Sequence record: NC_019720.1
Direction: 5' to 3' (one strand)
DNA length: 44,120 bases
DNA from: Enterobacteria phage mEp213
In this document: positions 23,950-38,802 of the stretch, in pieces
Position numbering within the stretch: position 1 is the stretch's first letter
Layout: every line of letters starts with the position of its first letter
Made by a program: the position numbers and the translations under genes
The notes under the pieces: model-generated
The model's input: the letters and a program-made list of their open reading frames with translations, nothing else
What the model was told of the DNA's origin: nothing
Database searches by the model: none

Positions 23950-24105
23950 GTGTTCTTTCAGTTCTTCAATTCGAATATTGGTTACGTCTGCATGTGCTAT
24001 CTGCGCCCATATCATCCAGTGGTCATAGCAGTCGTTGAAGTCCTCTGCTTCGATAACCCTGTTGAATGGTTCTCCATTCCATTCACCTGTGACTCGAAAG
24101 TGCAT
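23938..24105 (-). CDS. Hypothetical small protein (55 aa)
   Basis: GGAG 7 nt upstream of ATG; stop lies inside the terminator hairpin; preferred over the overlapping 79-aa listed ORF. Confidence 0.3.
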   Translation of the reverse strand: MHFRVTGEWNGEPFNRVIEAEDFNDCYDHWMIWAQIAHADVTNIRIEELKEHKTA

Positions 24106-24263
24106 TTATCATCTCCATAAAACAAAACCCGCCGTAGCGAGTTCAGATAAAAGAAATCCCCGCGAGTGCGAGGATTGTTATTGTCTTTGCTTCGTGCATT
24201 TGTCGCACTTTCGGCACCATCCAGATAGGCACATCCGTCCGCAATTAACACATATAGGCCACA

Positions 24264-24542
24264 TCATTTTTCCTCTTTTGGTTTATGAATCTGAATGGTC
24301 ATGCCGCTTTGAGTGGTGACTACAATGACAGAACCAGGCTGAAGGCTGTTAAGATTGAATGCTTCGTAAAACGAATCCAATGCCAGTGCTTTTTTATTCT
24401 TTCGGTTCCACCAACGCCATCCCCTGCTACAGGCCATGTTGACAATCCACTGCCCACTCCTGTAAGCCATATAAAACCAGATGAGCAAAACCTGAAGGAA
24501 TGCTATCCAGTCAATGATCGTATATTTCGCGAAGGAGTCCAT
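24264..24542 (-). CDS. Hypothetical membrane protein (92 aa)
   Basis: Hydrophobic N-terminal helix (IIDWIAFLQVLLIWFYMAY); start overlaps upstream stop (TGATG). Confidence 0.4.
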   Translation of the reverse strand: MDSFAKYTIIDWIAFLQVLLIWFYMAYRSGQWIVNMACSRGWRWWNRKNKKALALDSFYEAFNLNSLQPGSVIVVTTQSGMTIQIHKPKEEK

Positions 24543-24754
24543 CACTTCACCACCTGCGCCGTTTTGATGATTGCTGCCAGACAATTCTTGCAAGGAACAA
24601 GCAGCGTTCCCTGCTCAATGCTCAATAGCGCATGCTGAGCATCCTGAAAAAGCCATTCGAATGACCCTGGCCGATGACCGCACCATGTCTCAATCTCGTG
24701 CTTAGGGAGTTTAACTCCCTCTCGATAGTCATATTTGATGATGTGCTTGCTCAC
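24542..24754 (-). CDS. Hypothetical protein (70 aa)
   Basis: ORF in a chain of overlapping stop/start early genes. Confidence 0.4.
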   Translation of the reverse strand: MSKHIIKYDYREGVKLPKHEIETWCGHRPGSFEWLFQDAQHALLSIEQGTLLVPCKNCLAAIIKTAQVVK

Positions 24755-24942
24755 GACTTCACCTCCTGTTGAGCAGAAACCTGATTTTTGAGTGATTCAG
24801 AAATATTCCTGCAATACCTAGCGGATTCATCGTCGAAAATGCTTTCGAAATACTCAGCAATCCAGCCGAACACAACAACCTGCTCATTGCTTGGATTTGC
24901 ACTTTGATTGAAGGCGGTTATAAGTGATGCACTCATACTCAC
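24751..24942 (-). CDS. Hypothetical protein (63 aa)
   Basis: ORF in a chain of overlapping stop/start early genes. Confidence 0.4.
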   Translation of the reverse strand: MSMSASLITAFNQSANPSNEQVVVFGWIAEYFESIFDDESARYCRNISESLKNQVSAQQEVKS

Positions 24943-25739
24943 TTCACCTCCTGCTGCGGTGCTGCTGCGAGCATGGACTCGGTTTCTGCAATCAGGTGGC
25001 GAGGTAACTGACTGCCAGAACTTTGCATTGCGCGACCAAATGCTAACCAGCGCCGCAATATGTTAGCTGAACCATCCGGAGTTACCGGAGAGTTGCCAGC
25101 CTGAACAGTAGGCATATCCGGACCTTTGCGAATCGCCCTGGCAAGATCGATTGGGTCGTCGTATAACCAGTCACCTGTTTGCGGATGATTGGCCTCTGCC
25201 AGTTGCGCCGCCCATTCAAGGCCGTCTTTGTGACCTTGCAGATAGTCCAACGGCAACTCATCACGATTACTTACGGGTTCGATTTGTTCGGAATTACCGG
25301 ACAACTGCATGGTACCTTCATTGGTGAGGGTACCATCGGACTGAAGCATGGCGGCGCGGCAGGCGTTCACATCACCGTAAATCGGACCGATTAGATTAAA
25401 TCCTTTCATGGGGCAGCCAGCAGGAGAATAAGCAACTGCGCCATCATCGGACACGAATAAAAAGCCAACTGGTTTCAAATCAGGCACAGATGCCGGCGCT
25501 GGCGGGGCGGTGTAGAGAGTACGAGTGTCCTCACCGTCGCTGCTAAGGCGAATCATTTCATCCTCGTCTACGTCAGACCAGGTATCATCGCTGTTGCCGT
25601 AGACTTGATGCACAGCCTCCGCTTCGAGCGATGCCAGCGCGATACGCGCCAGCGCCGAAGCCTCACCACATTGAACGTGGTCAGTTTCGATAATTTGCTG
25701 TAACTGCTCTTTGGTGAATTCTTTGATAATAGTGCTCAT
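24939..25739 (-). CDS. Hypothetical acidic protein (266 aa)
   Basis: Long ORF with start/stop overlap with neighbours. Confidence 0.5.
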   Translation of the reverse strand: MSTIIKEFTKEQLQQIIETDHVQCGEASALARIALASLEAEAVHQVYGNSDDTWSDVDEDEMIRLSSDGEDTRTLYTAPPAPASVPDLKPVGFLFVSDDGAVAYSPAGCPMKGFNLIGPIYGDVNACRAAMLQSDGTLTNEGTMQLSGNSEQIEPVSNRDELPLDYLQGHKDGLEWAAQLAEANHPQTGDWLYDDPIDLARAIRKGPDMPTVQAGNSPVTPDGSANILRRWLAFGRAMQSSGSQLPRHLIAETESMLAAAPQQEVK

Positions 25740-26014
25740 GGGCGAATCTCCGTCCTGCCACCAAGTAAGCGGATTGCCACTCGTTCCCGGAAGGTAAGCG
25801 GTCGATGGTGTCCGCGGGCATTAACAATTTCAGGCTTTCCATTAGGCGGATAATTGACCCTGACCGATTGACCATCTAGCGCGTGAGAAGCCTCGAGTAG
25901 TGCTGACTTTAAGTGCGCAGGGCACTCTTTCTGCACCCGCTCGCCGTCTGAAATGACACCTGCAATCCCCTGAAGCATGCTGGCTAAATTGCTGAGATAA
26001 TTTTTCACATTCAC
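25736..26014 (-). CDS. Hypothetical protein (92 aa)
   Basis: ORF with start/stop overlap with neighbours. Confidence 0.45.
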   Translation of the reverse strand: MNVKNYLSNLASMLQGIAGVISDGERVQKECPAHLKSALLEASHALDGQSVRVNYPPNGKPEIVNARGHHRPLTFRERVAIRLLGGRTEIRP

Positions 26015-26451
26015 TCTCCTTTACCGGTGCCATAGGCAGATAAGCACTCTTCAAATCCAGCCTGATTATCCGTTTGACCTAAACTGAAGCCATGCTGAAG
26101 ACCATGACGAAATGCGCTATCTTGCAATTTATCTGCGCTATCGAGCTTCGCTTCCAGTTTAGCAATACGCTCCTCATACCGAGCGCCAACGGAAACGGCT
26201 TTATGGAAGGCTTCGCACCATTTTGACGATTGCGCCTGCATCTTCTCCAGCTCATCCAGAAGCGCCAGCACGGTAGTGGGGTTTGCTGCGGAGTTCAGCG
26301 CGTTCAAGGCAGTGATATCTGCATCAAGCTGAGTTCCTTCTGCCAGTGAGATATCGAAAATGTCATCAGGCGGCATAACACTAAGGCGCTCATGTGCGCC
26401 AACTGCTGCCGCTGCGATTTCACGCAGCGCCTGTTTGTCGATGTTGCTCAT
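26011..26451 (-). CDS. Ea22-like early protein, paralogue B
   Basis: N-terminus [16 protein letters not shown] parallels the next gene ([14 protein letters not shown]); coiled-coil middle. Confidence 0.5.
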   Translation of the reverse strand: MSNIDKQALREIAAAAVGAHERLSVMPPDDIFDISLAEGTQLDADITALNALNSAANPTTVLALLDELEKMQAQSSKWCEAFHKAVSVGARYEERIAKLEAKLDSADKLQDSAFRHGLQHGFSLGQTDNQAGFEECLSAYGTGKGE

Positions 26452-27092
26452 TGGGCTGCCTCCTTGCGAATCTGCTCCCTGAACAAGCGGGCTGAGACGA
26501 TGATGTCTCTGATGCGTACTGATTTTTCGTCGAACTGCTCACCACCGTTTTTAATATGCGCATCCAGTTCTGCACTGTGATGCCGAATGAAAGCGTTGAG
26601 GTCATGCGCCCGCGCTTCAGCCAGGAAAGCGTCGGTGGCTGGGGTTTTGTTATCTGACTCCAGCCACTGGTTGTAGTAATAATAGAACATGCCAGTAGGA
26701 TAACCACATCCGCTGTGCACGTGGTCTTTCATAGCAGAACCACACATGCAGTAGTCATTGTCAGTATTACTAATGATGTCGATAAGTTGCTGTGTCCGTT
26801 GCTTCAACATCGCATTCTCCGCCGCCAGCGCCGAAAACTTCTCGTGTGCCAACTTAACAGCTGCATCAGCCTGCTTAATTGACTCAGTCGCTTTCTGGTG
26901 GTCTTCGGCCAGCCCTGCTAAATCAGCCTCCAGTTCGGCTAGGCGTTCATTTAATGCATCTCGTTCATCCAGTAGAGCCAGCACAACCTGAGGTGTGACT
27001 TTCATACGAAATGCCAGCAATTTTTGAGGTGTTGCTACTGTTTCAATTGCTACTGCTGCCTCACGCAGTACCTGATAGTCAATCTTGCTCAC
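26448..27092 (-). CDS. Ea22-like early protein, paralogue A (GTG start)
   Basis: AAGGAGG 6 nt upstream of GTG 27092, which overlaps upstream stop (GTGA); Cys/His cluster [15 protein letters not shown]. Confidence 0.5.
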
Positions 27093-27256
27093 TGGTTGCC
27101 TCCTTTGCGCCACATCGCATTCAGATATTTGTTGTCATTAACAGAACCGAAACTATTTCTCTTAAGCAATTCCTCTCTCGATGGCATTGGCTTTACGCGT
27201 TGGCGAATAATCATTTCTGCCGGAAGAATGCCGGGATTGTATGCAAGTCCTCTCAT
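27089..27256 (-). CDS. Hypothetical small protein (55 aa)
   Basis: GAGGAA RBS 6 nt upstream of ATG 27256; trimmed from the listed 115-aa ORF. Confidence 0.35.
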
Positions 27257-27266
27257 GGTAAATTCC

Positions 27267-27560
27267 TCAGTCATTACTGATAGCGCCATAGCGTGAGCGG
27301 TAATTACGCAGGCGCGGGTCAATTTCAGGGAAGTGGGTATATGTGGCTTTGCGGAATGGTCGGATTGATGTCTGGTAAATTCGCTCGCGTTCTTCTTTCT
27401 CTGCAAGCCATATACAATGGCGAAATTCCTTTTCATCTTTCGTTTCCTGCGGTAGAGACATTATCTGGTCGTAGTTTTTCCTGAATTTATCCAGCACCTC
27501 CGATACGGATTTGCCGGAACAGCGGCGCGGGTCATCCGCACCATACAGAGGCGCTGGCAT
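27267..27560 (-). CDS. Hypothetical protein (97 aa); position and length fit P22 Abc2 but unverified
   Basis: ORF immediately downstream of the erf-ssb pair in the leftward operon. Confidence 0.4.
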
Positions 27561-27583
27561 AATGGAATCCTTATTTTGCTACT

Positions 27584-27967
27584 TTAGAAGGGAATTGAAT
27601 CGTCGTATTCAGGATGATTTTGATGATTGCTACTTTGCTGCTGTTGGCTGTTTCCTGAAGTTGCAAATCCAATCTTTGCATTCAGTAATTCAAGAGTGAT
27701 TGATTGACCATTTTGCCCCTGATAAACATCAACCCTGATGTTTTCTCCGGTAATTTCCACAATGCCACCTTCAACAAGAACACTACGGTAGTAATCCGCT
27801 TGCGCTCCTGGCTTGGCAAATACAACGGCGCTGTAGTTTGTCCATTCTTTCTTTTTTGTCTGGCGATCGTAATACTGAACGCCAGCACGGATGTTGAATC
27901 CGATATTTTCCCCGGCCTGAAACTCTCTTGCGGGTTTGTTTAGTCTTACAGTAATCGAATGTGCCAT
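27584..27967 (-). CDS. ssb: Single-stranded DNA-binding protein-like
   Basis: 127 aa; OB-fold-like body and C-terminal acidic tail ending DDSIPF; start overlaps erf stop (TAATG). Confidence 0.55.
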   Translation of the reverse strand: MAHSITVRLNKPAREFQAGENIGFNIRAGVQYYDRQTKKKEWTNYSAVVFAKPGAQADYYRSVLVEGGIVEITGENIRVDVYQGQNGQSITLELLNAKIGFATSGNSQQQQSSNHQNHPEYDDSIPF

Positions 27968-28572
27968 TAAGCAGCCGCTCCTTCTAATTCGTCTCGTCTG
28001 ATGTTGTAAACGTCCTGCGCTTTGTGCTGCTCCGGTGTTCCTTCGAGCATCTTCCACGCTTTGGCGAACGCCTGTTTAAGCTCTTCCACGGTGTTTTTCT
28101 GCATTGCTGCGTCAGTGAATGCTTTTAGAACCTGTTCAGGTGTAGGTGATGGTTTTGATTGCTTTGCTACTGCGTTCTGCTGATGTTTATGCTCGTCTGT
28201 ATCTGCATCTTTCGCATCATCAATGCCGAACAAACCATTGAGGCAATACTTGCGTGCATAAGAGCTTGTAGCTCCCGTAACTTGTGCAGAATCCATCCCT
28301 TTCTTGCTTTCTTCCTCTCGTGCAAGAGCGGTTGCCGTATGACTGTTTTCGCCATCGGTAATAGTTGCCGTGGCTTTCACGTAATACCGATCACCAATCA
28401 ACACAACTTCATCGCTGATTGATAAAAACAGGCCATTCAGTAACGGCTTAACGCCTTCAAGAATGTCTTCGCAGCTTCTGTATTTATATTTTCCGAATGA
28501 GTTGTACTGATTCTTTGGCGCGTTCAGATTTTCCTGAATAGCTGCCAGTCTTGCGTAAAATTCTTTGCTCAT
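27967..28572 (-). CDS. erf: Erf single-strand annealing recombinase (P22 Erf-like)
   Basis: MSKEFYARLAAIQENLNAPKNQYNSFGKYKYRSCEDILEGVKPLL... closely matches remembered P22 Erf. Confidence 0.85.
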   Translation of the reverse strand: MSKEFYARLAAIQENLNAPKNQYNSFGKYKYRSCEDILEGVKPLLNGLFLSISDEVVLIGDRYYVKATATITDGENSHTATALAREEESKKGMDSAQVTGATSSYARKYCLNGLFGIDDAKDADTDEHKHQQNAVAKQSKPSPTPEQVLKAFTDAAMQKNTVEELKQAFAKAWKMLEGTPEQHKAQDVYNIRRDELEGAAA

Positions 28573-28661
28573 ATGATTGTTCTCAGAATGGACATGGCCC
28601 AAGGAAATAACGCTGATTTAATACTTCAGTCTTTGCCGCATTTAAAAATACGCGAACACCT

Positions 28662-28832
28662 TCACGATCTCCCTTCTGGCGATACATTAACGCCTGCTGC
28701 GTGTACATGCGTCTCTGTAACTTGCTCTCCTTCACTGTGGTTGCAAGTGACATGAATATCTCCTTCGTTACCGATTAATTCTTTCATCTGACGAATGAAT
28801 TCTTCGTCTGACCAGTTATCTGTAAAACTCAT
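28662..28832 (-). CDS. Hypothetical small acidic protein (56 aa)
   Basis: ATG overlaps the Kil-like stop (ATGA coupling). Confidence 0.35.
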   Translation of the reverse strand: MSFTDNWSDEEFIRQMKELIGNEGDIHVTCNHSEGEQVTETHVHAAGVNVSPEGRS

Positions 28833-28981
28833 TTCCTGCGATACCACTGAAGGTTGATAGCTGATTTCATCGCTTTATTTGCTTCAAGCCACATTTTTGA
28901 ATCACCAATAAATCTGGCTATTACTGCTTTGTTCTGTGCAGCACGAAGCATCTGGTGATTGATGGCTATTTCATTGCGCAT
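28829..28981 (-). CDS. kil: Kil-like host-killing/cell-division inhibitor (50 aa)
   Basis: IARFIGDSKMWLEA resembles lambda Kil (ATFIGDEKMFREA); directly downstream of cIII-like gene. Confidence 0.5.
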   Translation of the reverse strand: MRNEIAINHQMLRAAQNKAVIARFIGDSKMWLEANKAMKSAINLQWYRRK

Positions 28982-29097
28982 AATAAGACCTCAACTCTTT
29001 TCCATCCGTCACGTAATTTACGGGTGATTCGTTCAAGTAAAGATTCATTTAATTGGAAGGCACCCATGCGAGCGCCTCCCGCGATTGCGTAAATCAT
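28966..29097 (-). CDS. cIII: cIII-like protease inhibitor (43 aa)
   Basis: MIYAIAGG....ESLLERITRKLRDGWKR matches the lambda cIII core from memory; below the ORF-track size cutoff. Confidence 0.65.
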   Translation of the reverse strand: MIYAIAGGARMGAFQLNESLLERITRKLRDGWKRVEVLLCAMK

Positions 29098-29121
29098 GGG
29101 TGGTTCCTTATGTTGGTTTTA

Positions 29122-30090
29122 TTAGTAGGTTATTTTTGTTGCGAATACTTCGCCTTTTACGATGGCTGTTATGATATTTTTAGCAACATCTTCTGATGCA
29201 CCAACCTTGATAAGGTCAGCAAGTATTTTGTTATTTACTTCTTTCCGGTGAGCTTTATCCTTTGCTCTACGCTCTTCTTCTTCCTTGATTCTTTTTTCTT
29301 CTGCTATTCTGGCTTGCTCTTTTGCTTCAGCATCGCGCCGGATTCGTTCAGCCTCCTCCTGTGCTTTTCGGCGTTCTGCTTCAATTGCCGCCTGCTTTTC
29401 TCTTTCAGCTCGTTCTGCTGCCTCTTTTGCTTCGCGCTGTGCTCGTTGCTCGGCCTCAATGCGTTCACGCTCTGCACGTTCCGCTGCGGCCTTAGCTTCT
29501 GCTTCTCTCCTTGCTGCTGCTTCAATTTCGGCTTTTGCCTTTGCTTCGGCTTCTGCTCTGGCTTTCTCTTCAGCTTCTCTTTTTAAGCGTTCTTCATGCT
29601 CTCGCTTTTCCTGCTCCGCTTTGAGTCTTGCCTCTTCTCTTTGGCGGTCAAATTCGCGATCCATCAAAATCGCTATTTCATGGTCAGACTCAATTTGCTT
29701 TGCGAGAGCTTCAGCTGCTGCCTTAGCTTCTTCTTCGGCTTTAATCCGTGCCTGTTCCTCCTCATAATCAGTAAGAGGCTGGCGCGCCTTGGCTTTCAGC
29801 TCATCAAGGCGATCACGCACTGTCTTGCGGTTGGCATCAATTAGCTTTGGAATTTCCTTCAGTTCAGCAACAAGGTCTTTGCCAAGACCATCGAGATATG
29901 TTTTCGTCTGCGCAACTTTATACGCCAGAGAAGCGATCTCCTTTCTGCCCTTTGCCGTTGTGATATCAGGCGCAAAGGACATAACTTCACGTTCAACCCT
30001 TTGAAGGATTTCTTCAATCTGGTCGGCAGACTGAAATACAGTCATTGCATTTGCTTTTTCAATAACAACTAAATCTGTTACTTCACTCAT
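29122..30090 (-). CDS. Charged coiled-coil/single-helix protein (E/R/K/A-rich), unknown function
   Basis: 323 aa from ATG 30090 (GGAGGA RBS); central 200 aa of EEARLKAEQEKREHEERLKREAEEKARAEAEAKAKAE-type repeats. Confidence 0.6.
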   Translation of the reverse strand: MSEVTDLVVIEKANAMTVFQSADQIEEILQRVEREVMSFAPDITTAKGRKEIASLAYKVAQTKTYLDGLGKDLVAELKEIPKLIDANRKTVRDRLDELKAKARQPLTDYEEEQARIKAEEEAKAAAEALAKQIESDHEIAILMDREFDRQREEARLKAEQEKREHEERLKREAEEKARAEAEAKAKAEIEAAARREAEAKAAAERAERERIEAEQRAQREAKEAAERAEREKQAAIEAERRKAQEEAERIRRDAEAKEQARIAEEKRIKEEEERRAKDKAHRKEVNNKILADLIKVGASEDVAKNIITAIVKGEVFATKITY

Positions 30091-30123
30091 ATATCCTCCG
30101 TCAAAAAAAATCGCCCCCACACT

Positions 30124-30191
30124 GGAGGGCAAAGAAGATTTCCAATAATCAGAACAAGTCGGCTCTTGTTTAGTTACGAGCGACATTGCTC
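30124..30191. repeat. 68-bp direct repeat, copy 1, followed by 9-bp-stem hairpin (30193-30220)
   Basis: 67/68 identical to 31521-31588. Confidence 0.9.
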
Positions 30192-30264
30192 CGTGTATTC
30201 ACTCGTTGGAATGAATACACAGTGCAGTGTTTATTCTGTTGTTAGTGCCAAAAATAAAGGCCGA

Positions 30265-30588
30265 CTATGCGGCCTTATCTACATTCCTGAACCAAACGCA
30301 GATCGGACCGTCTTCTGTATCGTGAATCGAACCGACAAACCATCCTTCTCCATCTGGCATGCTTGGCTCCCATCCACTGATGTTTGGATTCCCATCTTCA
30401 AAATACGCGTCAATTACCGTTTGATTGTTGTCGTTTTCCATTTCAACAATTGATGATTCAATGCCATGCTGCTTGCAGAAATATCTGAACTCATCAGCTG
30501 AAATTGCCTCTCTATCCCCAAACAGGTTGGCGTATTCTGGGTGCGTCCAGTAGCCATCCTCGCTTCGCTCTACTACTAATGCTTCCAT
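30265..30588 (-). CDS. Hypothetical strongly acidic protein (107 aa)
   Basis: About 23 Asp/Glu versus 6 Lys/Arg; stop overlaps a GGCCG-N6-CGGCC hairpin. Confidence 0.45.
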   Translation of the reverse strand: MEALVVERSEDGYWTHPEYANLFGDREAISADEFRYFCKQHGIESSIVEMENDNNQTVIDAYFEDGNPNISGWEPSMPDGEGWFVGSIHDTEDGPICVWFRNVDKAA

Positions 30589-30650
30589 ATATCACCTCAA
30601 ATAAGTGGTTTGCTGCCAAAACAATGAACCATCCGGAAATTCCAGATAGT

Positions 30651-30878
30651 TCATAATTCACTCTTCAATACTTCCAGCTTACTAATCGCCGAAAGATATC
30701 CGCGCTGATAGGGCATCATCATTCCTTCGAGCTTGCCACTTCTTAACTCCTCCCTGAGCAATTGTATTGCTTGATCAATAACCTCTGCCTTAGCGTCCTT
30801 TATGGCTTGCTTGCGGGGCTTTGCTTTCTGCTTTGGCAGATTTCTCAAGCATGATGGAATGTATGTCTGATTCATCAC
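30651..30878 (-). CDS. Hypothetical protein (75 aa)
   Basis: ORF contiguous with the upstream gene. Confidence 0.4.
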   Translation of the reverse strand: MMNQTYIPSCLRNLPKQKAKPRKQAIKDAKAEVIDQAIQLLREELRSGKLEGMMMPYQRGYLSAISKLEVLKSEL

Positions 30879-31151
30879 TTACCTCGCCGTCAGTTGTTTT
30901 GATTTCCGGTATCCTGCCGCGTAAATGGCTACGTTTGGCAGGCAAATACTTCCACTGCATTCTTCTGCCTTCTTGCAGCGAAGGCTTCCGAGTGATGCTG
31001 CTTTGTCTGCTCTGACGCAACCAGAGAGCTTTAGCGCAATTTTTCGCGCCAGTCGCTGTTCTTGCATTGCCTGCTCACGTTGAGCCTGTCTGCGTGCTCT
31101 GCGGCGATTTCTGGCGTTATCGTCAGCCAGATATGTAATGACTACTGTCAT
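30879..31151 (-). CDS. Hypothetical protein with Arg-rich N-terminus and four Cys (90 aa)
   Basis: ARNRRRARRQAQREQ segment followed by a Cys cluster. Confidence 0.4.
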   Translation of the reverse strand: MTVVITYLADDNARNRRRARRQAQREQAMQEQRLARKIALKLSGCVRADKAASLGSLRCKKAEECSGSICLPNVAIYAAGYRKSKQLTAR

Positions 31152-31520
31152 GTTGACCTCCGATGATTGACTTTGGCGGTGACGCGCCGGGTGCTTATCT
31201 TCCGGTTGCCGTCGTGCAGCTGCACTTCACGTCACCCCAAAGCCAACTACTCTTTGACTCACACTCTCGCAGTGAGCGCGCTCATGCCCTTGAGTCTCTG
31301 TCGCTTATTAGCCGCTGATAACCGGTGCGCGTCTGGCATTCGCGCTGCCTTTCCGGAGCATGTTCCCTTATTTACCCTCACATCGGTCTGCTAAACCTGC
31401 TCGCCATTACGCGACTCGGGGCAGCATCATTACTGCTGCATTGCCTTTCGGCTGCGGTCTAACCGCGTTAGTGCACCATTACAGCACCTCATGTTTGGTT
31501 AAACTCAGTTCCCGCATTTC

Positions 31521-31588
31521 GGAGGGCAAAGAAGATTTCCAATAATCAGAACAAGTCGGCTCCTGTTTAGTTACGAGCGACATTGCTC
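31521..31588. repeat. 68-bp direct repeat, copy 2, followed by 8-bp-stem hairpin (31591-31614)
   Basis: 67/68 identical to 30124-30191; adjacent hairpin has a different stem but a loop again beginning CTCG. Confidence 0.9.
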
Positions 31589-31620
31589 ACATAGCAGACT
31601 CGCAAATCTGCTATAGGTGC

Positions 31621-31782
31621 TTATTCGCATCGCATGACAACATCAAATTTTTCGAGATTACTTTGTCGCAACAATCCCTCTTCTACGCGGTCAGCTTTTC
31701 TATAATTATCAAATTCGAAATGTTTAATTACTTCTTTCGTTTCTCGCTCTATAACTTCAACAATGTATTTCTTATTCATCAT
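31621..31782 (-). CDS. Hypothetical small protein (53 aa)
   Basis: ATG overlaps upstream stop (ATGA). Confidence 0.4.
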   Translation of the reverse strand: MMNKKYIVEVIERETKEVIKHFEFDNYRKADRVEEGLLRQSNLEKFDVVMRCE

Positions 31783-32063
31783 TCTTCCCCCAGGGCCTTG
31801 CTGATGGCTGCCTTGGCTCGTTTGTATTCGGTTAACTCTCTGCACCCTTCGTCATGCTCGTAAAGGAAGACAAGCTCTTGCAGTGCTTCAAGCAAATCAG
31901 GAGCTGCTGCTATCAGTAGCGCATCCTCCCTTTCATTTCTTGTTGCTGCTTCAATGTATGTGTCACCAATCGTCACACCATGGAACGTAGTCATCATCTC
32001 GTTGACGTTTCTAACCGTGTACTTCCATTTACCAGGCGTACCCTTAAACTCTTTCATATTCAC
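31779..32063 (-). CDS. Hypothetical protein (94 aa)
   Basis: ORF in pL operon. Confidence 0.45.
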   Translation of the reverse strand: MNMKEFKGTPGKWKYTVRNVNEMMTTFHGVTIGDTYIEAATRNEREDALLIAAAPDLLEALQELVFLYEHDEGCRELTEYKRAKAAISKALGEE

Positions 32064-32111
32064 CTCTGTTGTTTATGCCAAAAGAAGGCCGACTATGCGG
32101 CATAATTATTT

Positions 32112-32300
32112 TTAACTATCATCAATACATGGCACTTTATTCCAGTCGATATCGTTTTTATTGTCGTCCCACATGTCTTTGTTTTTGTATTTCTCGCTAC
32201 ATCCTAGGCAAATGTTGTATGGCCTACCGATAAGGTTTAACGAAATACGTTGCATTTCATTTGATTCAAACATGTATCCACAGAACTGACATTTATGCAT
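32112..32300 (-). CDS. Small zinc-ribbon-like protein (62 aa)
   Basis: CxxC...CxxC pattern (CQFCG ... CLGC); first gene after N. Confidence 0.45.
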   Translation of the reverse strand: MHKCQFCGYMFESNEMQRISLNLIGRPYNICLGCSEKYKNKDMWDDNKNDIDWNKVPCIDDS

Positions 32301-32303
32301 ATC

Positions 32304-32636
32304 TCACCCCTCATACAGTAGCTTACTGCCTAATTTCATTTTCTGGCGACCAACACAAGTCACACCCATTTCACTGCGTGGCTTGCTGTACCATGTGCGC
32401 TGATTCTTGCGCTCAATACGTTGCAGGTTGCTTTCAATCTGTTCGTGGTATTCAGCCAGTACCGTAAGGTCTATCGGATTCAGTGCGCTTTCTACTCGTG
32501 ATTTCGGTTTGCGATTCAGCGAGAGAATAGGGCGGTTAACAGGTTTTGCGCTTACCCCAACCAACAGGGGATTTGCTGCTTTCCATTGAGCCTGTTTCTC
32601 TGCGCGACGTTCGCGGCGGCGTGTTTGTGCATCCAT
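32304..32636 (-). CDS. N: Antitermination protein N (lambda-like)
   Basis: MDAQTRRRERRAEKQAQWKAANPLLVGVSAKPVNRPILSLNRKPKSRVESALNPIDLTVLAEYH matches lambda N from memory; divergent C-terminus. Confidence 0.9.
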   Translation of the reverse strand: MDAQTRRRERRAEKQAQWKAANPLLVGVSAKPVNRPILSLNRKPKSRVESALNPIDLTVLAEYHEQIESNLQRIERKNQRTWYSKPRSEMGVTCVGRQKMKLGSKLLYEG

Positions 32637-32904
32637 CTGGATTCTCCTGTCAGTTAGCTTTGGTGGTGTGGTGGCTGGTAGTCTAGCTCCAGCTTGTTGA
32701 GTCTCATTCGGAGGGGTATAACCGGCACCCCAGCGATTTTTCCATGCGACAACGTGCGCGTTATGGCGGCCTTATCGCCCGCGGCTCCCCATCTCGTCCA
32801 CGCTATTGCTAGCGTTGGGAGCGCTTCACCGCTCAACAGTAGGTAAGCACTTGCCAGTGACTAGCTGGCTTCACCACACCCCAAAGCCTTCTGCTTTGAA
32901 TGCT

Positions 32905-32935
32905 GCCCTTCTTCAGGGCTTAATTTTTAAGAGCG
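32905..32935 (-). promoter_or_regulatory. nutL (boxA CGCTCTTAA and boxB GCCCTGAAGAAGGGC on the - strand)
   Basis: Reverse complement of 32905-32935 gives boxA then boxB as in lambda nutL. Confidence 0.85.
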
Positions 32936-32974
32936 TCACCTTCATGGTGGTCAGTGCGTCCTGCTGATGGCTAG

Positions 32975-33036
32975 ATAATCACAAATTGTGTTCGTGCTGT
33001 CAACACGAAATGTGATTGTTTTTATCACAACACGTG
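32975..33036 (-). promoter_or_regulatory. pL with three CAC-N5-GTG operators (OL)
   Basis: - strand -35 TTGACA (32998-33003), 17-bp spacer, -10 GATTAT (32975-32980); operator dyads at 32980-32990, 33004-33014, 33026-33036. Confidence 0.6.
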
Positions 33037-33124
33037 TTTTCATTGATTTTTAAGGTAATTTAATTTTCTTTGGGCAACAAAAAACCCGCCGAAGCGGGTT
33101 TGATGTTTTTAAGTGGCGGGTATA

Positions 33125-33766
33125 TCAGGAGAATTTCATCATCATCTGCACTGCTACGCCGATTATCTTGCAGTTGCCGTCGATTGGGATCAACGGATAG
33201 GCAGGGTTAAGCCCTTTCAGGTATTTGTTACCGCCATCAATGATTAGCTTCTTGAACGTGGCTTCATTAGCATCTGTCAGCTTCGCAACTACCAGGCTTC
33301 CATTAACGGCTTCCTTTCCAGTGTCGAACAGAACCAGCATACCCTCAGGAACGCTAAGGCCGGTAGGAGCTGTCATTGAGTCGCCCTGAACCCTGAGCCA
33401 GAAGGCGTCACCGACAACGTGACAATCTGATTCATACCACTCATCCACTGCCTGAGGGTTGTACGGCTCTACGGCCTCACTCCATGCACCTGCGCTAACC
33501 CAGCTAATCAACGGAAACTTTTCCCCTGGCTTGTATTGTCCCTGATAGTTGTCGCCAAAAAGCAGTTCTGCCGGAGCGACGCCCAAAGCTTTAGCTATTA
33601 CCTCTGCGTCATCAACACTAACGCTTCTGGTTCCTGATTCATAGTTGCCGATCCGAGATTGTGAAGCCCAGCCGCAAAGCTCCGCCAGAGCCTTCTGTGA
33701 AAGCCCTTTATCTTCCCGTAATCGCTTGATACGCGCGGCGATAGTTTCTGTTCTGTTCATGCGCAT
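33125..33766 (-). CDS. cI: CI-type repressor (HTH plus S24 LexA-like autopeptidase domain)
   Basis: N-terminal HTH (LSQKALAELCG), GDSM active-site serine motif, conserved Lys downstream; divergent from cro; terminator hairpin downstream (33084-33105). Confidence 0.85.
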   Translation of the reverse strand: MRMNRTETIAARIKRLREDKGLSQKALAELCGWASQSRIGNYESGTRSVSVDDAEVIAKALGVAPAELLFGDNYQGQYKPGEKFPLISWVSAGAWSEAVEPYNPQAVDEWYESDCHVVGDAFWLRVQGDSMTAPTGLSVPEGMLVLFDTGKEAVNGSLVVAKLTDANEATFKKLIIDGGNKYLKGLNPAYPLIPIDGNCKIIGVAVQMMMKFS

Positions 33767-33773
33767 TTTATAT

Positions 33774-33837
33774 CACATTCCGTGGTTTAAGGCTTTACAC
33801 GATTTGTGTTGACTATCAATCACAATATGTGTTTAAT
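33774..33837. promoter_or_regulatory. OR region: three CAC-N5-GTG operators with pR (and presumably pRM)
   Basis: Dyads at 33774-33784, 33798-33808, 33821-33831 (spacing 24 and 23 bp); -35 TTGACT 33809-33814, -10-like TTTAAT 33832-33837. Confidence 0.6.
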
Positions 33838-33870
33838 AAAGACTGAGTGAACTAGCTCTTAAGGAAACCT

Positions 33871-34086
33871 ATGAACAACATTGCCAACGAACGGAAAAAG
33901 CTTGGCATCACTCAATCTGCGTTAGCAGGCGCGTGTGGCTGGAACCAGTCCCGCTTAGCTAACTACGAGTCAGGTATCCGGACTCCAGATTTAGAGTCGT
34001 GCCGTCGCCTGGTAAAGGCGCTGAATAAATTGGGGAGCAAGACAACGCTAGATGGCTTGTTCCCGCCGGAACACAAAGCCGCTTAA
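33871..34086 (+). CDS. cro: Cro-type HTH repressor
   Basis: 71 aa, XRE-type HTH (LGITQSALAGACGWNQSRLANYESG), divergent from cI; AAGGAA RBS. Confidence 0.8.
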   Translation: MNNIANERKKLGITQSALAGACGWNQSRLANYESGIRTPDLESCRRLVKALNKLGSKTTLDGLFPPEHKAA

Positions 34087-34094
34087 GACATTCC

Positions 34095-34126
34095 AGCTCT
34101 TACACATCCCAGCCCTGAAAAAGGGC
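34095..34126 (+). promoter_or_regulatory. nutR (boxA GCTCTTACA, boxB GCCCTGAAAAAGGGC)
   Basis: Matches lambda nutR from memory; followed by lambda-like tR1/cII leader. Confidence 0.85.
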
Positions 34127-34205
34127 ATCAAATTAAACCACACCTATGGTGTATGCATTTATTTGCATACCTTCAATCAATTGTTATCTAAGGAAATACT
34201 TACAT

Positions 34206-34484
34206 ATGGTTCGTGCAAACAAACGCAACGAGGCTCTACGAATCGAGAGTGCTTTGCTTAACAAAATCGCAATGCTTGGAACTGAGAAGACAGCGGAAGC
34301 TGTGGGAGTTGATAAGTCGCAGATCAGCAGGTGGAAGAGGGATTGGATTCCAAAGTTCTCAATGCTGCTTGCTGTTCTTGAATGGGGTGTTGAAGACGAG
34401 GAGTTGGCGGAACTGGCTAAGAAAGTAGCCAGAATGCTGACAAAAGAAAAAGCCCCGAAGAACGGCGAATTCTTCGAGGCCTGA
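34206..34484 (+). CDS. cII: Transcriptional activator CII (lambda-like)
   Basis: MVRANKRNEALRIESALLNKIAMLGTEKTAEAVGVDKSQISRWKRDWIPKFSMLLAVLEWG matches lambda CII from memory. Confidence 0.9.
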   Translation: MVRANKRNEALRIESALLNKIAMLGTEKTAEAVGVDKSQISRWKRDWIPKFSMLLAVLEWGVEDEELAELAKKVARMLTKEKAPKNGEFFEA

Positions 34485-34518
34485 TGTAGAAAGACTGGAT
34501 CAATCCACAGGAGTAATT

Positions 34519-34680
34519 ATGACAAAACGTCGTAAGAAATACCAGGAAAAAGAAGAGATTCGACACCCTGATTCACCTGAGGGATTAGTGGTAGCCGCAG
34601 CAAATAACAGGGCGTTCGCAGAGCGCCTTGTTGGTGTTTACAGACTAGCCAAAGCAGGAGTGAAACATGGGCGTCGTTAA
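34519..34680 (+). CDS. Hypothetical small basic protein (53 aa) between cII and O
   Basis: AGGAG RBS 7 nt upstream of ATG; 3' end overlaps the O-like start; below the ORF-track cutoff. Confidence 0.4.
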   Translation: MTKRRKKYQEKEEIRHPDSPEGLVVAAANNRAFAERLVGVYRLAKAGVKHGRR

Positions 34681-35488
34681 GTTAGCTGATTACAGGCCTC
34701 AACTGGAGGTCGTGGAGCATCGCGTGGCAGATACCGAAGATGGTTTCATGCGCGTTGCTAACGAGATTACCGACAGTCTGCTGATGGCTGATTTAACCGT
34801 CCGGCAGATGAAGGTGATGCTCGCTATCATGCGCAAGACATACGGATTCAATAAGCCGATGGATCGACTCACAAACACGCAGATAGCAGCCATGACAGGT
34901 ATTCATCACACTCATGTTTGCGCTGCCAAGCGCCAGCTTATTGAGCGTAAATTCCTCATTGCTGATGGCGTGAAAATCGGAGTGAACAAGGTAGTTTCGC
35001 AGTGGATTAGCCAGGACAGCTTAACATTAGCTAAAACAGCTAATAAAACATTAGCCAAGTCGGCTAATGGGTATAAGCCAAGTCAGCTAAACACAAAAGA
35101 CAATATACAAAAGACAATAAATACAAATACCCCCTTACCCCCTAACGGGGGTGGCGATGGGCAGGTTAAACCTGAACGTCGCAAGGCAGAACGAATCGAC
35201 TACGAATCCTTCCTGAACGCCTACAACACCGAAGTCGGTGACAGACTGCCACACGCTGTTGCGGTCAACGAGAAACGCAAACGCCGCCTGAAGAAAATCA
35301 TCCCGCAACTGAAAACGCCAAACGTGGACGGTTTCAGAGCGTATGTCAGGGCGTTTGTGCATCAGGCCAAGCCGTTTTACTTCGGAGACAACGACACGGG
35401 CTGGACAGCTGATTTTGATTATCTGCTGAGGGAAGACTCGTTAACGGGAGTTCGGGAAGGGAAGTTTGCAGACAGGGGGATTGCATGA
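34667..35488 (+). CDS. O: Replication initiator (lambda O-like) containing ori
   Basis: 273 aa; N-terminal O-like DNA-binding region, iterons embedded mid-gene, stop overlaps helicase start. Confidence 0.8.
35027..35130. promoter_or_regulatory. Origin of replication: three about 18-bp dyad iterons at 24-bp spacing plus AT-rich tract
   Basis: TTAGCTAAAACAGCTAAT / TTAGCCAAGTCGGCTAAT / AAGCCAAGTCAGCTAAAC followed by ACAAAAGACAATATACAAAAGACAATAAATAC. Confidence 0.65.
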
Positions 35489-36861
35489 GACAGGATATCG
35501 AAGCGAGCGTTATCGGTGGCCTGCTGATTGGTGGATTAACGCCAACCGCCAGTGACGTTCTGGCAACGCTTGAGCCGGAAGCGTTTTCAATTCCGCTCTA
35601 CAGGAAAGCCTTCGAGGTTATCCGCAAGCAGGCGCGAAACAGAAACCTAATCGACGCGCTGATGGTTGCCGAGGCGTGCGGAGAGGAGCATTTCACGTCA
35701 ATCCTGATGACAAGCAAAAACTGCCCGAGTGCCGCAAACCTGAAGGGATATGCCGGAATGGTCGCGGATAACTATCACCGCCGTCTGGTGCTGGAAATCA
35801 TGGATGAAATGCGTGAACCAATTCAGAGCGGAACCATCGACGCATCGAGTCAGGCGATGGATGAACTTGTAAAACGTCTCTCAGCTATCAGAAAGCCCCG
35901 TGACGAGGTTAAACCTGTACGGTTAGGGGAAATCATAACTGACTACACTGACACGCTTGACAGGCGTCTGAGGAACGGAGAAGAGTCAGATACCCTGAAG
36001 ACCGGAATCGAAGAACTTGACGCCATCACCGGAGGGATGAACGCGGAAGACCTGGTGATTATCGCCGCTCGTCCTGGTATGGGGAAAACCGAACTGGCTC
36101 TGAAGATTGCCGAAGGCGTTGCAAGCCGCGTTATTCCTGGTTCTGACGTCCGGCGCGGGGTATTGATTTTCTCAATGGAAATGAGCGCATTGCAGATTGC
36201 AGAGCGAAGTATTGCCAACGCCGGGAGGATGTCGGTTAGCGTGCTGCGAAATCCTGCATCGATGGATGACGAAGGCTGGGCGCGCGTTGCTAACGGCATG
36301 AGTCAGCTTGCAGATTTGGATGTATGGGTAGTCGATGCCTCGCGGTTATCGGTCGAAGAAATACGCTCAATCGCAGAACGGCACAAACAGGAAAATCCAA
36401 ACCTGTCACTCATCATGGCGGATTATCTTGGCCTGATTGAGAAGCCGAAAGCAGATCGCAACGACCTCGCAATTGCTCACATCTCAGGAAGCCTGAAGGC
36501 GATGGCGAAAGACCTGAAAACACCGGTTATCTCCCTGAGTCAGCTTTCACGCGATGTTGAGAAGCGACCAAACAAACGCCCGACAAACGCAGATTTGCGT
36601 GATTCAGGAAGCATTGAACAGGACGCAGACTCAATCATCATGCTCTATCGGGAAGCGGTATATGACGAGAACAGTAGCGCCGCACCATTTGCTGAAATCA
36701 TTGTGACAAAAAACCGTTTTGGCTCGCTTGGTACGGTTTACCAGCGGTTCTGCAACGGACACTTTGTTGCATGTGACCAGGATGAAGCCAGACAGATTTG
36801 CACAGCATCAAATGCACCTGCTGCGCGTGGCAGACGATATGCACAAGGGGCTGACGTATGA
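35485..36861 (+). CDS. Replicative DNA helicase (DnaB family, P22 gene 12-like)
   Basis: 458 aa; Walker A (ARPGMGKTE), DnaB-type motifs. Confidence 0.85.
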
Positions 36862-36885
36862 CCATCTACATCACTGAGCTAATAA

Positions 36886-36918
36886 CAGGCCTGCTGGTAA
36901 TCGCAGGCCTTTTTATTT
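36886..36918 (+). terminator. Intrinsic terminator after helicase
   Basis: AGGCCTGC-N7-GCAGGCCT hairpin followed by T5. Confidence 0.55.
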
Positions 36919-36933
36919 GGGGGAGAGTAAATC

Positions 36934-37140
36934 GTGGTTAAGTTTATGCTCGTCGCACTCAAATGCGTTGGCGTTGGATGGATTCTTATGACGTTTTTTA
37001 TTGTTCTGCATAGCTACATTCGTCTTGTGAATGACGGTAAAGACCCATGGTATACGTTGTTTGGCGCTGCATTTGTCTGGGTGATTATCGGTGTTATGCC
37101 TGTTGTCGTAGCAAAAATGGCGTGGCGTTTTGTTAGTTGA
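36934..37140 (+). CDS. Small two-helix membrane protein (start GTG 36934 or ATG 36946)
   Basis: Two hydrophobic segments (WILMTFFIVL, AAFVWVIIGVMPVVV). Confidence 0.45.
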   Translation: MVKFMLVALKCVGVGWILMTFFIVLHSYIRLVNDGKDPWYTLFGAAFVWVIIGVMPVVVAKMAWRFVS

Positions 37141-37157
37141 ATTGAGGGTAAGTATCG

Positions 37158-37529
37158 ATGGACGAATCAAGAAAGCAGTTTGAGGAATACGTTGCCAAAA
37201 AATTGAGATTACCATTCGAGATGATAACCGAGGCAAGAAATGGTGATAGGTACTTCGCATTTTCAAGCATGGATATTCGTCACTCCTTAAATGAGTGGTG
37301 GACTTTATGGCAGGCATCGCGAGCAGCTATTGAACTGGATATCGACTGGCCCGAATCGAATGACGACTTTTGGAAAGATGGTGAAGAAGGTGCTTATGCG
37401 ATGGGGCATGAGGATGGGAAGGACAAAATGGTAATTGCAGTGATGAAAGCTATCAGAGCCGCTGGAATTAAAGAGAAGAATTTCGATGAAGCAAATATAC
37501 ATGCTTCGCAACGAAGCAATCAGAAATAA
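37158..37529 (+). CDS. Hypothetical protein (123 aa)
   Basis: ORF at the lambda ren position, overlapping the ninB start. Confidence 0.45.
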   Translation: MDESRKQFEEYVAKKLRLPFEMITEARNGDRYFAFSSMDIRHSLNEWWTLWQASRAAIELDIDWPESNDDFWKDGEEGAYAMGHEDGKDKMVIAVMKAIRAAGIKEKNFDEANIHASQRSNQK

Positions 37530-37932
37530 CGCCATAGACGCAATACTCTCACTACCCATCGACGACAAGTCACCCCACGAAGTCCACGTTAGAGAACCCA
37601 AACGCAGCAAAGCGCAGAATGACCGTATGTGGCCGATGCTGAACGATGTTTCGCGTCAGGTGCTATGGCATGGTCAACGGCTGGCGCCGGAAGACTGGAA
37701 AGACCTGTTCACTGCCCTGTGGCTTAAGACCAAAAAACTGGAGCAACGAAGTGTGCCTGGTATCGATGGTGGCGTTGTCATGCTTGGCGTGCGTACCAGC
37801 AAAATGCGAAAGGCCAACATGACTGAGCTTATCGAAATCATGTTCTGGTTCGGCTCAGAGCGCAACGTGCGATGGAGTGATGACTCCCGGCGAGAGTATG
37901 AATGGTCACAACGAAAAGGGAAGGCTGCATGA
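37486..37932 (+). CDS. ninB: NinB (Orf) recombination mediator
   Basis: DVSRQV.WHG, VMLGVRTSKMR and WSD motifs as in lambda NinB. Confidence 0.8.
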   Translation: MKQIYMLRNEAIRNNAIDAILSLPIDDKSPHEVHVREPKRSKAQNDRMWPMLNDVSRQVLWHGQRLAPEDWKDLFTALWLKTKKLEQRSVPGIDGGVVMLGVRTSKMRKANMTELIEIMFWFGSERNVRWSDDSRREYEWSQRKGKAA

Positions 37933-38456
37933 CTATCAAATCAAATACGCCAGCACACGACAAGGACTGCTGGCAAACGCCGCTTTGGCTTTTTGATGCA
38001 CTGGATATTGAGTTTGGATTCTGGCTGGATTCGGCAGCGAGCGACAAAAATGCTCTGTGCGCTCACTGGTTAACTGAGGCCGACGACGCGCTAAATTCTG
38101 AGTGGATAAGCCACGGTGCAATCTGGAATAACCCACCGTACAGCAATATCAGGCCGTGGGTGGAAAAAGCCGCTGAGCAGTGCATACAACAGCGACAGAC
38201 GGTAGTGATGCTTGTGCCAGAGGATATGTCTGTCGGATGGTTCAGCAAGGCTCTGGAGAGTGTTGACGAAGTTCGCATCATCACTGATGGACGGATTAAT
38301 TTTATCGAACCATCGACAGGGCTGGAGAAGAAGGGAAACAGCAAAGGCTCCATGCTGCTGATTTGGCGACCGTTCATCAGTCCTAGACGGATGTTTACTA
38401 CCGTATCCAAAGCGGCATTGATGGCGATCGGGCAGGGCGTCAGGAGGGCGGCATGA
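37929..38456 (+). CDS. dam: Phage DNA N6-adenine methyltransferase (Dam-like)
   Basis: NPPYS catalytic motif; ATGA start overlap with ninB. Confidence 0.75.
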
Positions 38457-38635
38457 GGCGACAACGACGAAGTATCACCGACATAATCTGCGAAAACTGC
38501 AAATACCTTCCAACGAAGCGCACCAGAAATAAACGCAAGCCAATCCCAAAAGAATCTGACGTAAAAACCTTCAACTACACGGCTCACCTGTGGGATATCC
38601 GGTGGCTTAGAGAACGTGCGAGGAAAACAAGGTGA
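38453..38635 (+). CDS. ninE: NinE
   Basis: 60 aa, matches lambda NinE from memory ([23 protein letters not shown]...). Confidence 0.85.
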
Positions 38636-38802
38636 TTGACCCAAATCGAAGTTACGAACAAGAAAGCGTCGAGCGAGCTTTAACGTGTGCTAACTGCGGT
38701 CAGAAGCTGCATGTGCTGGAAGTTCATGTGTGTGAGCACTGCTGCGCAGAACTGATGAGCGATCCGAATAGCTCAATGTACGAGGAAGAAGACGATGGCT
38801 AA
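38632..38802 (+). CDS. ninF: NinF (GTG start)
   Basis: 56 aa, [44 protein letters not shown] as in lambda NinF; below the ORF-track cutoff. Confidence 0.75.

Follow-up and report, generated by a model that had tools for sequence, protein, structure and literature searches.

Positions 31152-31520 of the phage mEp213 genome are the 5′ leader of a second N-type antiterminator gene, N2, and this leader contains an inserted element, designated X here, that is a self-contained member of an RNA family spread among temperate phages of the Enterobacterales. The DNA analyzed, referred to as the window, is the sequence of Enterobacteria phage mEp213 (NC_019720.1; 44,120 nucleotides, nt), which is 100% identical to Escherichia phage mEp213 (PV340538.1). 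The segment lies inside the leftward early operon, is predicted to be transcribed leftward (31520 to 31152, minus strand), and is non-coding apart from a mini open reading frame (ORF). It is a composite of three unrelated pieces: a boxB remnant, X, and the proximal leader of N2. Comparative sequence evidence makes it very probable that X represents a structured RNA family, and this family is new as far as the databases and searchable literature consulted here show. A first-pass annotation of the window, made from the letters alone, had suggested a structured non-coding RNA in the leftward early operon. This suggestion is borne out by homologues in many phages that share a common fold through compensatory changes, and the segment's coordinates and the inverted repeats named in it are all present.

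Distribution and boundaries of X

The limits of X follow from an empty and a filled version of one locus. In phage HK620, the annotated nutL (boxA GCTCTTTAACA, boxB UCCCGCCGAAAUGCGGGA) stands directly before CAAAGAGUAGUUGG... and N, and X is absent, as it is from HK022. In a prophage of E. coli WEM25, cI, pL, and the same nutL are followed by an extra stretch, the same CAAAGAGUAG..., and N. Thus, the insert is fixed at 31257-31507. The covariance model of the family (R1) finds a single copy in the window (232 bits, E ~4e-89 to 4e-91) and exactly one copy per locus in 100 phage and prophage loci.

At 77-90% identity, blastn places X in Stx2c phages, Hafnia yong1, Providencia PSTCR7lys, Klebsiella RothC and RothD, phiKO2, E. 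coli 733R5, and mEp237. X is carried by 15 of 50,697 phage records and by 122 of 5426 complete E. coli genomes, where it is chromosomal and occupies a median of one place per genome (maximum two). The E. coli copies have no annotation save for occasional “hypothetical protein” calls. At least 120 IMG/VR contigs match an 18-nt motif, CTCAARGGCATRAGCGYG. Overall, the number of enterobacterial prophages with X runs into the hundreds. Genomes of Kluyvera, Citrobacter, Pseudocitrobacter, Silvania, and Yokenella in GTDB also hold X; in this pattern scan, 14 of the first 100 loci listed are true X by the model, and most of the 120 entries listed are chance matches. Genes for “hypothetical proteins” are annotated antisense to X at 3564-3719 of locus L004 (RefSeq WP_170995389.1) and at 2416-2752 of the RothC locus L007 (XDI99235 and XDI99236). 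These calls are very probably spurious, and the recognition of X corrects those made over it in RefSeq.

Three genomic settings are found: between nutL and N; after Q and its terminator, before transfer RNA (tRNA) or lysis genes; and between the lysis cassette and terminase. It always reads in the sense direction of its operon. Upstream of it are nut sites with at least five different boxB sequences, tR′-like terminators, other terminators, or spanin genes; 24 of 84 copies have a terminator-like hairpin in the 90 nt before them. In lytic operons, X always stands directly behind a transcription-control point, which may be nutL, the late terminator tR′, a different terminator, or the point where the lysis cassette ends.

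Copies of the Providencia/Morganella type carry the string GGUGAGUUGAUUAAUAG(A/G)..GGAGA on both sides of X, for example at ~2180-2215 and 2445-2480 of L005 (Providencia PSTCR7lys), and also in L097, L100, L053, and L054. Insertion seems to have duplicated the region that initiates translation of the downstream gene, and the string may be a boundary sequence for module exchange.

Conserved fold and start-stop frame of X

For the structure of X, 21 copies of homogeneous length were aligned with MAFFT (A2) and the pairing was worked out manually; the covariance model R1 followed from it. RNAalifold on the raw MAFFT alignments of all X copies gave a poor consensus because of modular insertions. 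The fold has eleven helices plus a pseudoknot and contains an invariant tract (Table 1). In A2, 93.1% of cells pair vs. 83.7% in shuffles (0 of 500 reach the observed value), 20 pairs show double-sided changes vs. 9.6 in shuffles, and the covariation score is 0.303 vs. 0.129 in shuffles (reached by 0 of 500) and 0.03-0.05 for slid partners. Across 91 distinct sequences (A3), 95.1% of cells pair, 32 of 43 pairs show double changes, and the score is 0.303 vs. 0.114 in shuffles and at most 0.043 when slid; A3 was fitted to R1, which flatters these large counts, and the independent A2 agrees with them. Mutual information over all column pairs ranks the helices on top, together with a pseudoknot pair.

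The pseudoknot joins CCC(C/U) after H3 with (G/A)GG after H6. Its pair is C-G 64 times, U-A 23 times, U-G once, and another combination twice, and both the C-G and the U-A state are seen in all three genomic contexts. Helix H1 is mostly invariant across the family. Peripheral hairpins are swapped across subfamilies, while the core is kept. Helices across the family hold 231 G-U against 69 A-C appositions; therefore, the structure is read on the minus (transcribed) strand, at the level of RNA. This ratio speaks against the other option raised by the first-pass annotation, namely that the segment holds protein-binding sites on DNA.

The inverted repeats singled out at first belong to different elements. 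The dyads GCAGCA-N-GCTGC and GCC-TTTC-GGC are H3 and H2, respectively, and both are backed by covariation. The GGTGACG...CGTCACC dyad around TGCAGCTGCA corresponds to the long N2-leader hairpin. However, TGAGCGCGCTCA falls outside the conserved fold. It is a lineage-specific palindrome, shares sequence with an arm of H9 and with the invariant 3′ tract, and is replaced by GAGCGCGGCCAC in most relatives.

The segment had also been called ORF-free. This holds insofar as only short ORFs of 25-75 amino acids overlap it, none of which is open across relatives, but it overlooks a conserved mini-ORF of three codons at 31479-31468. A conserved protein-coding gene, which would have spoken for a different reading of the segment, is absent from relatives. 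Their sequences have stops in all six frames, with a median of 2-5 in each, and the longest open stretches lie at inconsistent positions. The covariation across homologous phages, in turn, shows both structure and conservation.

In mEp213, the mini-ORF reads ATG GTG CAC TAA. Every subfamily has GGAGG, GAGG, or GGAG, a gap of 6-9 nt, ATG (occasionally TTG), and a near-immediate stop; under a strict rule, the Shine-Dalgarno sequence (SD) and ATG are present in 85 of 97 distinct 5′ regions. An in-frame stop occurs within three codons in 79 of these 85 copies, the counts for the +1 and +2 frames being 7 and 3. The mini-ORF has one codon in 13 copies, two in nine, and three in 57, and its peptides are unrelated (e.g., MVH, MKQ, MHQ, MK, and M). 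Copies without the usual UAA before H1 have an earlier in-frame stop, and thus selection acts on termination rather than on a fixed sequence. In 80 of 83 copies, the conserved CGG of H1 follows the start codon at a distance of 14-15 nt, counted from the A. This distance would correspond to about the downstream edge of a ribosome with AUG in the P site. When the mEp213 copy is aligned with that of WEM25, both substitutions seen fall in the SD region (GGAGG to GAGG). Judging from these sequence features, the mini-ORF of X probably does engage ribosomes.

Alternative pairings were also weighed. H10 in the register of mEp213 is only 56% paired across the family and was dropped for a family register. 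An extension of P4 that pairs CCC with a 3′ AAGGG was rejected, since the AAGGG/AAAGG variants fail, by eye, to track CCCC/CCCU, whereas the internal GGG does. A translation-operated switch between H1 and GCGG in the H10 loop was also considered; neither element varies, and in many copies other modules stand in for H10.

Many copies outside the nutL setting (L006, L102, L103, L048, L095, L034, L089, L094, and others) share a further element 5-60 nt past H9, consisting of AAAG-CAUUACAG, a hairpin, and then CGAUAAUGC. In this element, CAUUA pairs with UAAUG, and late-operon copies have an intrinsic terminator in its place. The 3′ boundary of the family may lie ~50 nt beyond the model used.

Table 1. 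Features of the N2 leader and its surroundings in the mEp213 window.
Feature	Position	Strand	Details
cI	33766-33125	minus	First in minus-strand order
pL-like promoter	33003-32975	minus	After cI
Lambda-type nutL boxB	32919-32905	minus	
N1, lambda-type N gene	32636-32304	minus	Pfam N36
68-nt direct repeat, upstream copy	31521-31588	minus	Truncated TolA-like gene start (MSLVTKQEPTCSDYWKSSLPS...); 99% identity to 30124-30191, spacing 1397
nutL remnant, HK620/H-19B type	31508-31527	minus	boxB GCCCUCCGAAAUGCGGGA + AC, vs. UCCCGCCGAAAUGCGGGA in HK620
X, insert relative to HK620	31257-31507	minus	251 nt, between boxB-AAC and CAAAG; covariance-model match 31253-31488
Predicted ribosome-binding site and mini-ORF of X	31468-31490	minus	SD GAGG 31490-31487; AUG 31479-31477; GUG CAC; UAA 31470-31468
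5′ hairpins of X	31421-31466	minus	H1 31466-31463/31457-31454, loop UUAGA
H2	31452-31450/31445-31443	minus	GAAA loop; covaries
H3	31439-31434/31426-31421	minus	Loop GUAAUGA; all six pairs with compensatory changes
Pseudoknot	31375-31420	minus	CCC 31420-31418 with GGG 31377-31375; encloses P4-5′, H5, H6
P4-5′ strand	31417-31415	minus	GAG; proposed partner CUC 31294-31292
H5	31414-31411/31404-31401	minus	Covaries
H6	~31399-31396/31386-31384	minus	Covaries
P7	31356-31353/31325-31322	minus	CCGG; encloses H8; all pairs with compensatory changes, 98-99% paired
H8	31345-31341/31331-31327	minus	Loop with conserved GCCA; all pairs with compensatory changes, 98-99% paired
H10	31321-31318/31308-31305	minus	Peripheral hairpin; other subfamilies swap in different modules
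Invariant 3′ tract	31295-31277	minus	ACUCAAGGGCAUGAGCGCG, 19 nt; 95-100% conserved in 87 distinct sequences
H9, terminal hairpin	31276-31272/31262-31258	minus	Compensatory changes; closing pair G-C, C-G, U-A, A-U
N2 proximal leader	31152-31256	minus	Small hairpin CAAAG/CUUUG; long stem; apical GUGCAGCUGCAC hairpin; SD; N2 ATG
N2, second N-type antiterminator gene, HK620/H-19B/21 type	30879-31151	minus	phrog_271 E 3e-34; Pfam PF25694 N_peptide E 8e-16; annotated N in PV340538

Origin of the composite leader in mEp213

Three small ORFs lie between N1 and the segment in minus-strand order, and N2, a full-length ORF, follows the segment directly. Between N1 and X, no terminator is predicted on the minus strand of the window. 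The two N genes of mEp213, both annotated as such and confirmed here, differ in specificity, N1 being of the lambda type and N2 of the HK620/H-19B type. Both the nutL (32905-32919) and the nutR (34112-34126) of the window have a lambda-type boxB, and no HK620-type boxB was found elsewhere in the window. Thus, N2 appears to be orphaned in mEp213, where it is without an intact cognate nut site.

The nutL remnant was compared with the annotated nutL of HK620 and the intact locus of the WEM25 prophage. The junction, 31520/31521, lies inside boxB, in its 5′ arm, and two of the six stem pairs are lost as a result (GCCCUC-CGAAAU-GCGGGA in the window vs. UCCCGC-CGAAAU-GCGGGA when intact). The boxA (GCTCTTTAACA) found in HK620 and WEM25 is missing. 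Upstream of X, mEp213 retains only ...CUCCGAAAUGCGGGAAC, and the boxB 5′ arm and the whole boxA are swapped for a 68-nt start of a TolA-like gene, so that the sequence upstream of 31527 is a duplicated gene start. The full TolA-like copy is at 30124-30191, 1397 nt downstream of the truncated one, and the two repeat copies bracket a 1397-bp module of X, N2, and two ORFs. The replacement of the boxB 5′ arm and boxA by a repeat whose full copy lies 1397 nt downstream means that this module was captured by recombination, at a short CC microhomology within boxB. Together, the 68-nt repeat and the boxB junction are a clean footprint of illegitimate recombination among lambdoid phages.

The proximal leader of N2 (105 nt) matches the N leaders of HK620, mEpX2, HK630, and others at 99-100% identity. 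Its long stem (arms 31246-31230 and 31184-31167, minus strand) precedes the SD of N2 (GGAGG, 31161-31157), which lies ahead of the ATG at 31151-31149. The region 31145-31262 folds with a free energy of -43.5 kcal/mol (z = -3.43), and none of 200 shuffles folds as well. We take the position of the long stem to be that of the N-leader hairpin processed by RNase III in lambda. The stem motif UUUGGGGUG...CACC.CCAAAG is common to the leaders of N2 and N1.

The N1 leader also folds well (32655-32895, z = -3.84). Its stem (32885-32872/32673-32660, minus strand) encloses a 198-nt interior, 32674-32871, that is 100% identical in Sf6, HK544, HK446, mEp043, and Sf101, without sequence diversity. This interior presumably differs from that of lambda. 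It has short strings in common with X (CCGGUUAU and GAGACUCAA). A second, divergent X inside the N1 leader was considered and rejected, as the X covariance model gives no match there.

Just downstream of X in other loci, the equivalent leader stem has different contents. In the IMG/VR loci L059 (~7650-7760), L086, and L106, its interior holds a ~40-nt stretch, AGCUAGUUGGUGAGGUAAUGGCUCACCAAGGCGACGA, which appears to match 16S ribosomal RNA (rRNA) at about positions 240-285. Such a stretch in the early leader of a phage might represent a fragment or a mimic of rRNA. In another IMG/VR locus, L079 (~11340-11420), the interior is tRNA-like, with a GGUUCGAUUCC T-loop and an ...ACCACCA end; Rfam at the gathering threshold does not call this stretch a tRNA.

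Possible roles of X and comparison with known RNAs

The explanation favored here treats the N2 leader, with X in it, as a cis-acting ribosome-docking leader module, and as a whole its chances are evenly balanced. X would be made only within read-through, antiterminated lytic transcripts. Its strong SD and AUG would load a ribosome, and the first hairpin, 13-15 nt past the AUG, would then lie roughly at the downstream edge of the initiating ribosome. A stop after zero to two further codons would free the ribosome before it unfolds anything beyond H1, so that the pseudoknotted core would stay folded. Tightly folded and occupied by a ribosome, X might then serve as a cis-acting leader or insulator at the promoter end of long phage transcripts and condition the RNA downstream of it through stability, processing, or insulation. 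It could be, for example, a barrier to 5′-end-dependent attack by RNase E or a defined processing unit. This specific leader or stabilizer role, derived from the sequence features of X, is proposed only tentatively.

Several observations weigh against this explanation, in addition to the flattering fit of A3. P4 (GAG/CUC) is essentially invariant, so that it is neither backed nor contradicted, and it has an uncompensated change in 7 of 91 sequences. The region 31250-31520 folds no more stably than its shuffles (z = -0.55 for the minus and -0.90 for the plus strand); therefore, the evidence for the structure of X is comparative and not thermodynamic. Of 84 copies, 14 have a terminator-like hairpin in the 110 nt after them, and some copies are followed by tRNA genes, an arrangement that resembles a discrete RNA gene rather than a leader. 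The lysis-terminase context is not promoter-proximal. Finally, a simple barrier or stabilizer needs neither a 19-nt invariant single-stranded tract nor a conserved pseudoknot. Both fit recognition by a specific partner better, and thus favor a trans-acting RNA.

In such a role, X would be a discrete, processed non-coding RNA, an RNA “moron” whose tract and core bind a host or phage partner (e.g., the ribosome, a translation factor, an RNase, or a defense protein) in host takeover or anti-defense, and whose start-stop ORF delivers the RNA to the ribosome or stabilizes it. The invariance of the tract across every context and host genus is what such binding would predict, and the swapping of peripheral hairpins around a constant core agrees with it. 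Further points in its favor are the accessory distribution of X described above, its presence at classical moron sites beside tRNA genes (e.g., in Klebsiella RothC), and the terminator-type hairpins that often bracket it and would shield processed ends. However, no partner gene co-occurs beside X in the loci inspected, no complementarity to a host RNA was identified, and no promoter of its own is evident, and several loci have a terminator ending ~10 nt before the SD. A trans-acting X, the main rival, is possible but falls clearly short of probable; the tract, the neighboring tRNA genes, and the hairpins on either side agree with it almost as well as with the specific cis role, and its chances are rated about equal to those of that role.

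A bolder version of ribosome docking would make X the founder of a new class of phage RNAs that dock on the host ribosome via a built-in start-stop, as an RNA-only device for host takeover or anti-defense. The start-stop would park a ribosome with H1 at the messenger RNA entry site, and the pseudoknotted core and invariant tract would act on the translation machinery or on a ribosome-linked defense or quality-control factor, with the device expressed from antiterminated lytic transcripts. This version is speculative and rather doubtful. The mechanism of X, inferred from the features above, would also be novel.

For the mEp213 copy, the recombination footprint also admits a reading in which the segment is an inert by-product. 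On this view, mEp213 would have taken up a donor pL-nutL-X-N module downstream of its own lambda-type N, losing the nut site in the event, and would have no use for either X or N2. The junction inside boxB, the loss of boxA, the lack of a cognate boxB elsewhere in the window, and the 68-nt duplication that marks the event all agree with this, as does the location of both substitutions relative to WEM25 in the SD region. However, X (232 bits) and the full-length N2 are otherwise intact and ~99% identical to functional-looking copies, and X is independent of nut in other contexts. Inertness is thus unlikely, and it would concern the mEp213 copy only, not the family.

A ligand-sensing, riboswitch-like X, which would respond to a global signal (e.g., an alarmone or a nucleotide second messenger) and alter read-through or its own ribosome binding, is quite improbable. 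Its complex pseudoknotted fold, the invariant junction and tail nucleotides, and its location in leaders are reminiscent of such RNAs, and the intrinsic terminator that follows some copies is a possible expression platform. Nevertheless, the ribosome-binding site is upstream of the fold and not downstream, most copies have no terminator after X (the hairpin is found in the 14 of 84 already mentioned), and the transcripts are made by a terminator-resistant polymerase. In addition, the downstream genes have no common theme (N, tRNAs, lysis genes, and terminase), and no Rfam riboswitch matches even weakly.

The minigenes of lambda bar and CreT share an outline of strong SD, AUG, one or two sense codons, stop, and downstream structure. 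X resembles them in its strong SD, AUG, very short ORF, and immediate stop on the RNA of a phage or mobile element, which raises the prospect of a toxic minigene that traps a tRNA as peptidyl-tRNA and shuts down host translation. The frequency of stops within three codons agrees with this, but the sense codons of X are unconstrained (AAG, GUG, CAC, CUG, GUU, and others), without a conserved rare last codon, and the 13 copies with a bare AUG-stop would be unable to trap an elongator tRNA. X also adds a conserved pseudoknotted domain of ~210 nt and an invariant tract, which those RNAs lack and which would be superfluous to such a mechanism. A toxic minigene is therefore very improbable. Least credible of all is a small-protein gene, or a set of DNA sites such as operators left by the immunity region of the donor: short hypothetical ORFs are indeed annotated over the segment in RefSeq and in some phage records, and several dyads lie within it, but no frame is open across relatives, indels are not multiples of three, the annotated ORFs are antisense and differ between records, the helices tolerate G-U and not A-C (an RNA signature), and the donor operators and pL, which lie upstream of nutL, were not transferred.

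Database searches bear on the novelty of the family. Rfam 15 (4227 models) gave no matches in the whole window at the gathering threshold, and only two matches, both at chance level, in 30800-31900 at E up to 10. It likewise found nothing on X in 20 related loci (gathering threshold) or in the phiKO2 and 733R5 copies (E up to 10). ARAGORN found no tRNA or transfer-messenger RNA (tmRNA) in the window. Literature searches by sequence string and by topic (start-stop, minigene, nutL/N leader, lambdoid non-coding RNA, and mEp213) found X undescribed.

Several candidate relatives were rejected. The anti-small RNAs of enterohemorrhagic E. coli prophages are 51-60 nt long, located elsewhere, and unrelated to X. 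A relative of X in the core genome was sought by blastn against the 5426 E. coli genomes, where only X copies are matched (122 genomes). Likenesses to RNase P RNA, tmRNA, 16S rRNA, and the tRNA anticodon arm amount to short resemblances only and were set aside. With a group I intron, the insert would follow a U and finish with a G; X follows a C (AAC|UGAG), has U as its last nucleotide (GAGU|CAAAG), and has no match to RF00028.

The mEp213 leader is like a lambda-type N leader in that it opens with a boxB remnant, closes at an N start codon, and has a long hairpin of this kind at 31152-31256. Unlike such a leader, it lacks boxA, has a broken boxB, and carries the 251 nt of X between boxB and the hairpin; X is also found far from any N gene. 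The put RNAs of HK022, which act in cis as antiterminators, follow pL and pR closely; they are ~70 nt long, form two stem-loops, and lack a ribosome-binding site. Like them, X is structured, lies close to the promoter in the leader of lambdoid early operons, and would act without a protein gene of its own, but it co-exists with N and Q, and R1 with filters off gives at most 3.3 bits over HK022 24000-40751, and thus no put RNA similarity.

Ribosome profiling has revealed start-stop or minimal ORFs in E. coli, and 5′ stabilizers that bind ribosomes, such as STAB-SD of Bacillus, are isolated short sequences. In these as in X, a ribosome would be recruited, almost nothing synthesized, and the proposed effect exerted on the RNA. 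In contrast, the start-stop of X is integral to a mobile structured RNA, conserved, and at a fixed spacing to the first helix. GOLLD, ROOL, and C4-type RNAs of Rfam are, like X, conserved and covarying prophage non-coding RNAs of unknown or partly known function, sometimes beside tRNA genes, but X has another size and host range as well as a start-stop ORF.

If this account of X is correct, lambdoid phages, the best-studied temperate phages, carry a widespread and hitherto unannotated structured RNA at the most regulated positions of their genomes. An obligatory start-stop frame with constant spacing to the first helix sets X apart from every catalogued class of bacterial RNA that could be matched here, and it suggests an RNA that needs a ribosome sitting on it without a product. 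N leaders would, in addition, prove to be hot spots where structured RNAs are inserted. X would thereby offer a handle on the purpose of start-stop sites, on the protection or processing of long antiterminated phage transcripts, and on phage RNAs that, beside proteins and tRNAs, manipulate translation or evade defense.

A known RNA element is found near one copy of X. In the Stx2c phage Stx2_EH1904 (L010, 3992-4108), the ALIL pseudoknot (RF01497), a frameshift element of the IS3 family, scores 120 bits ~1.2 kb from X, which indicates an insertion sequence in the early-left region of this phage.

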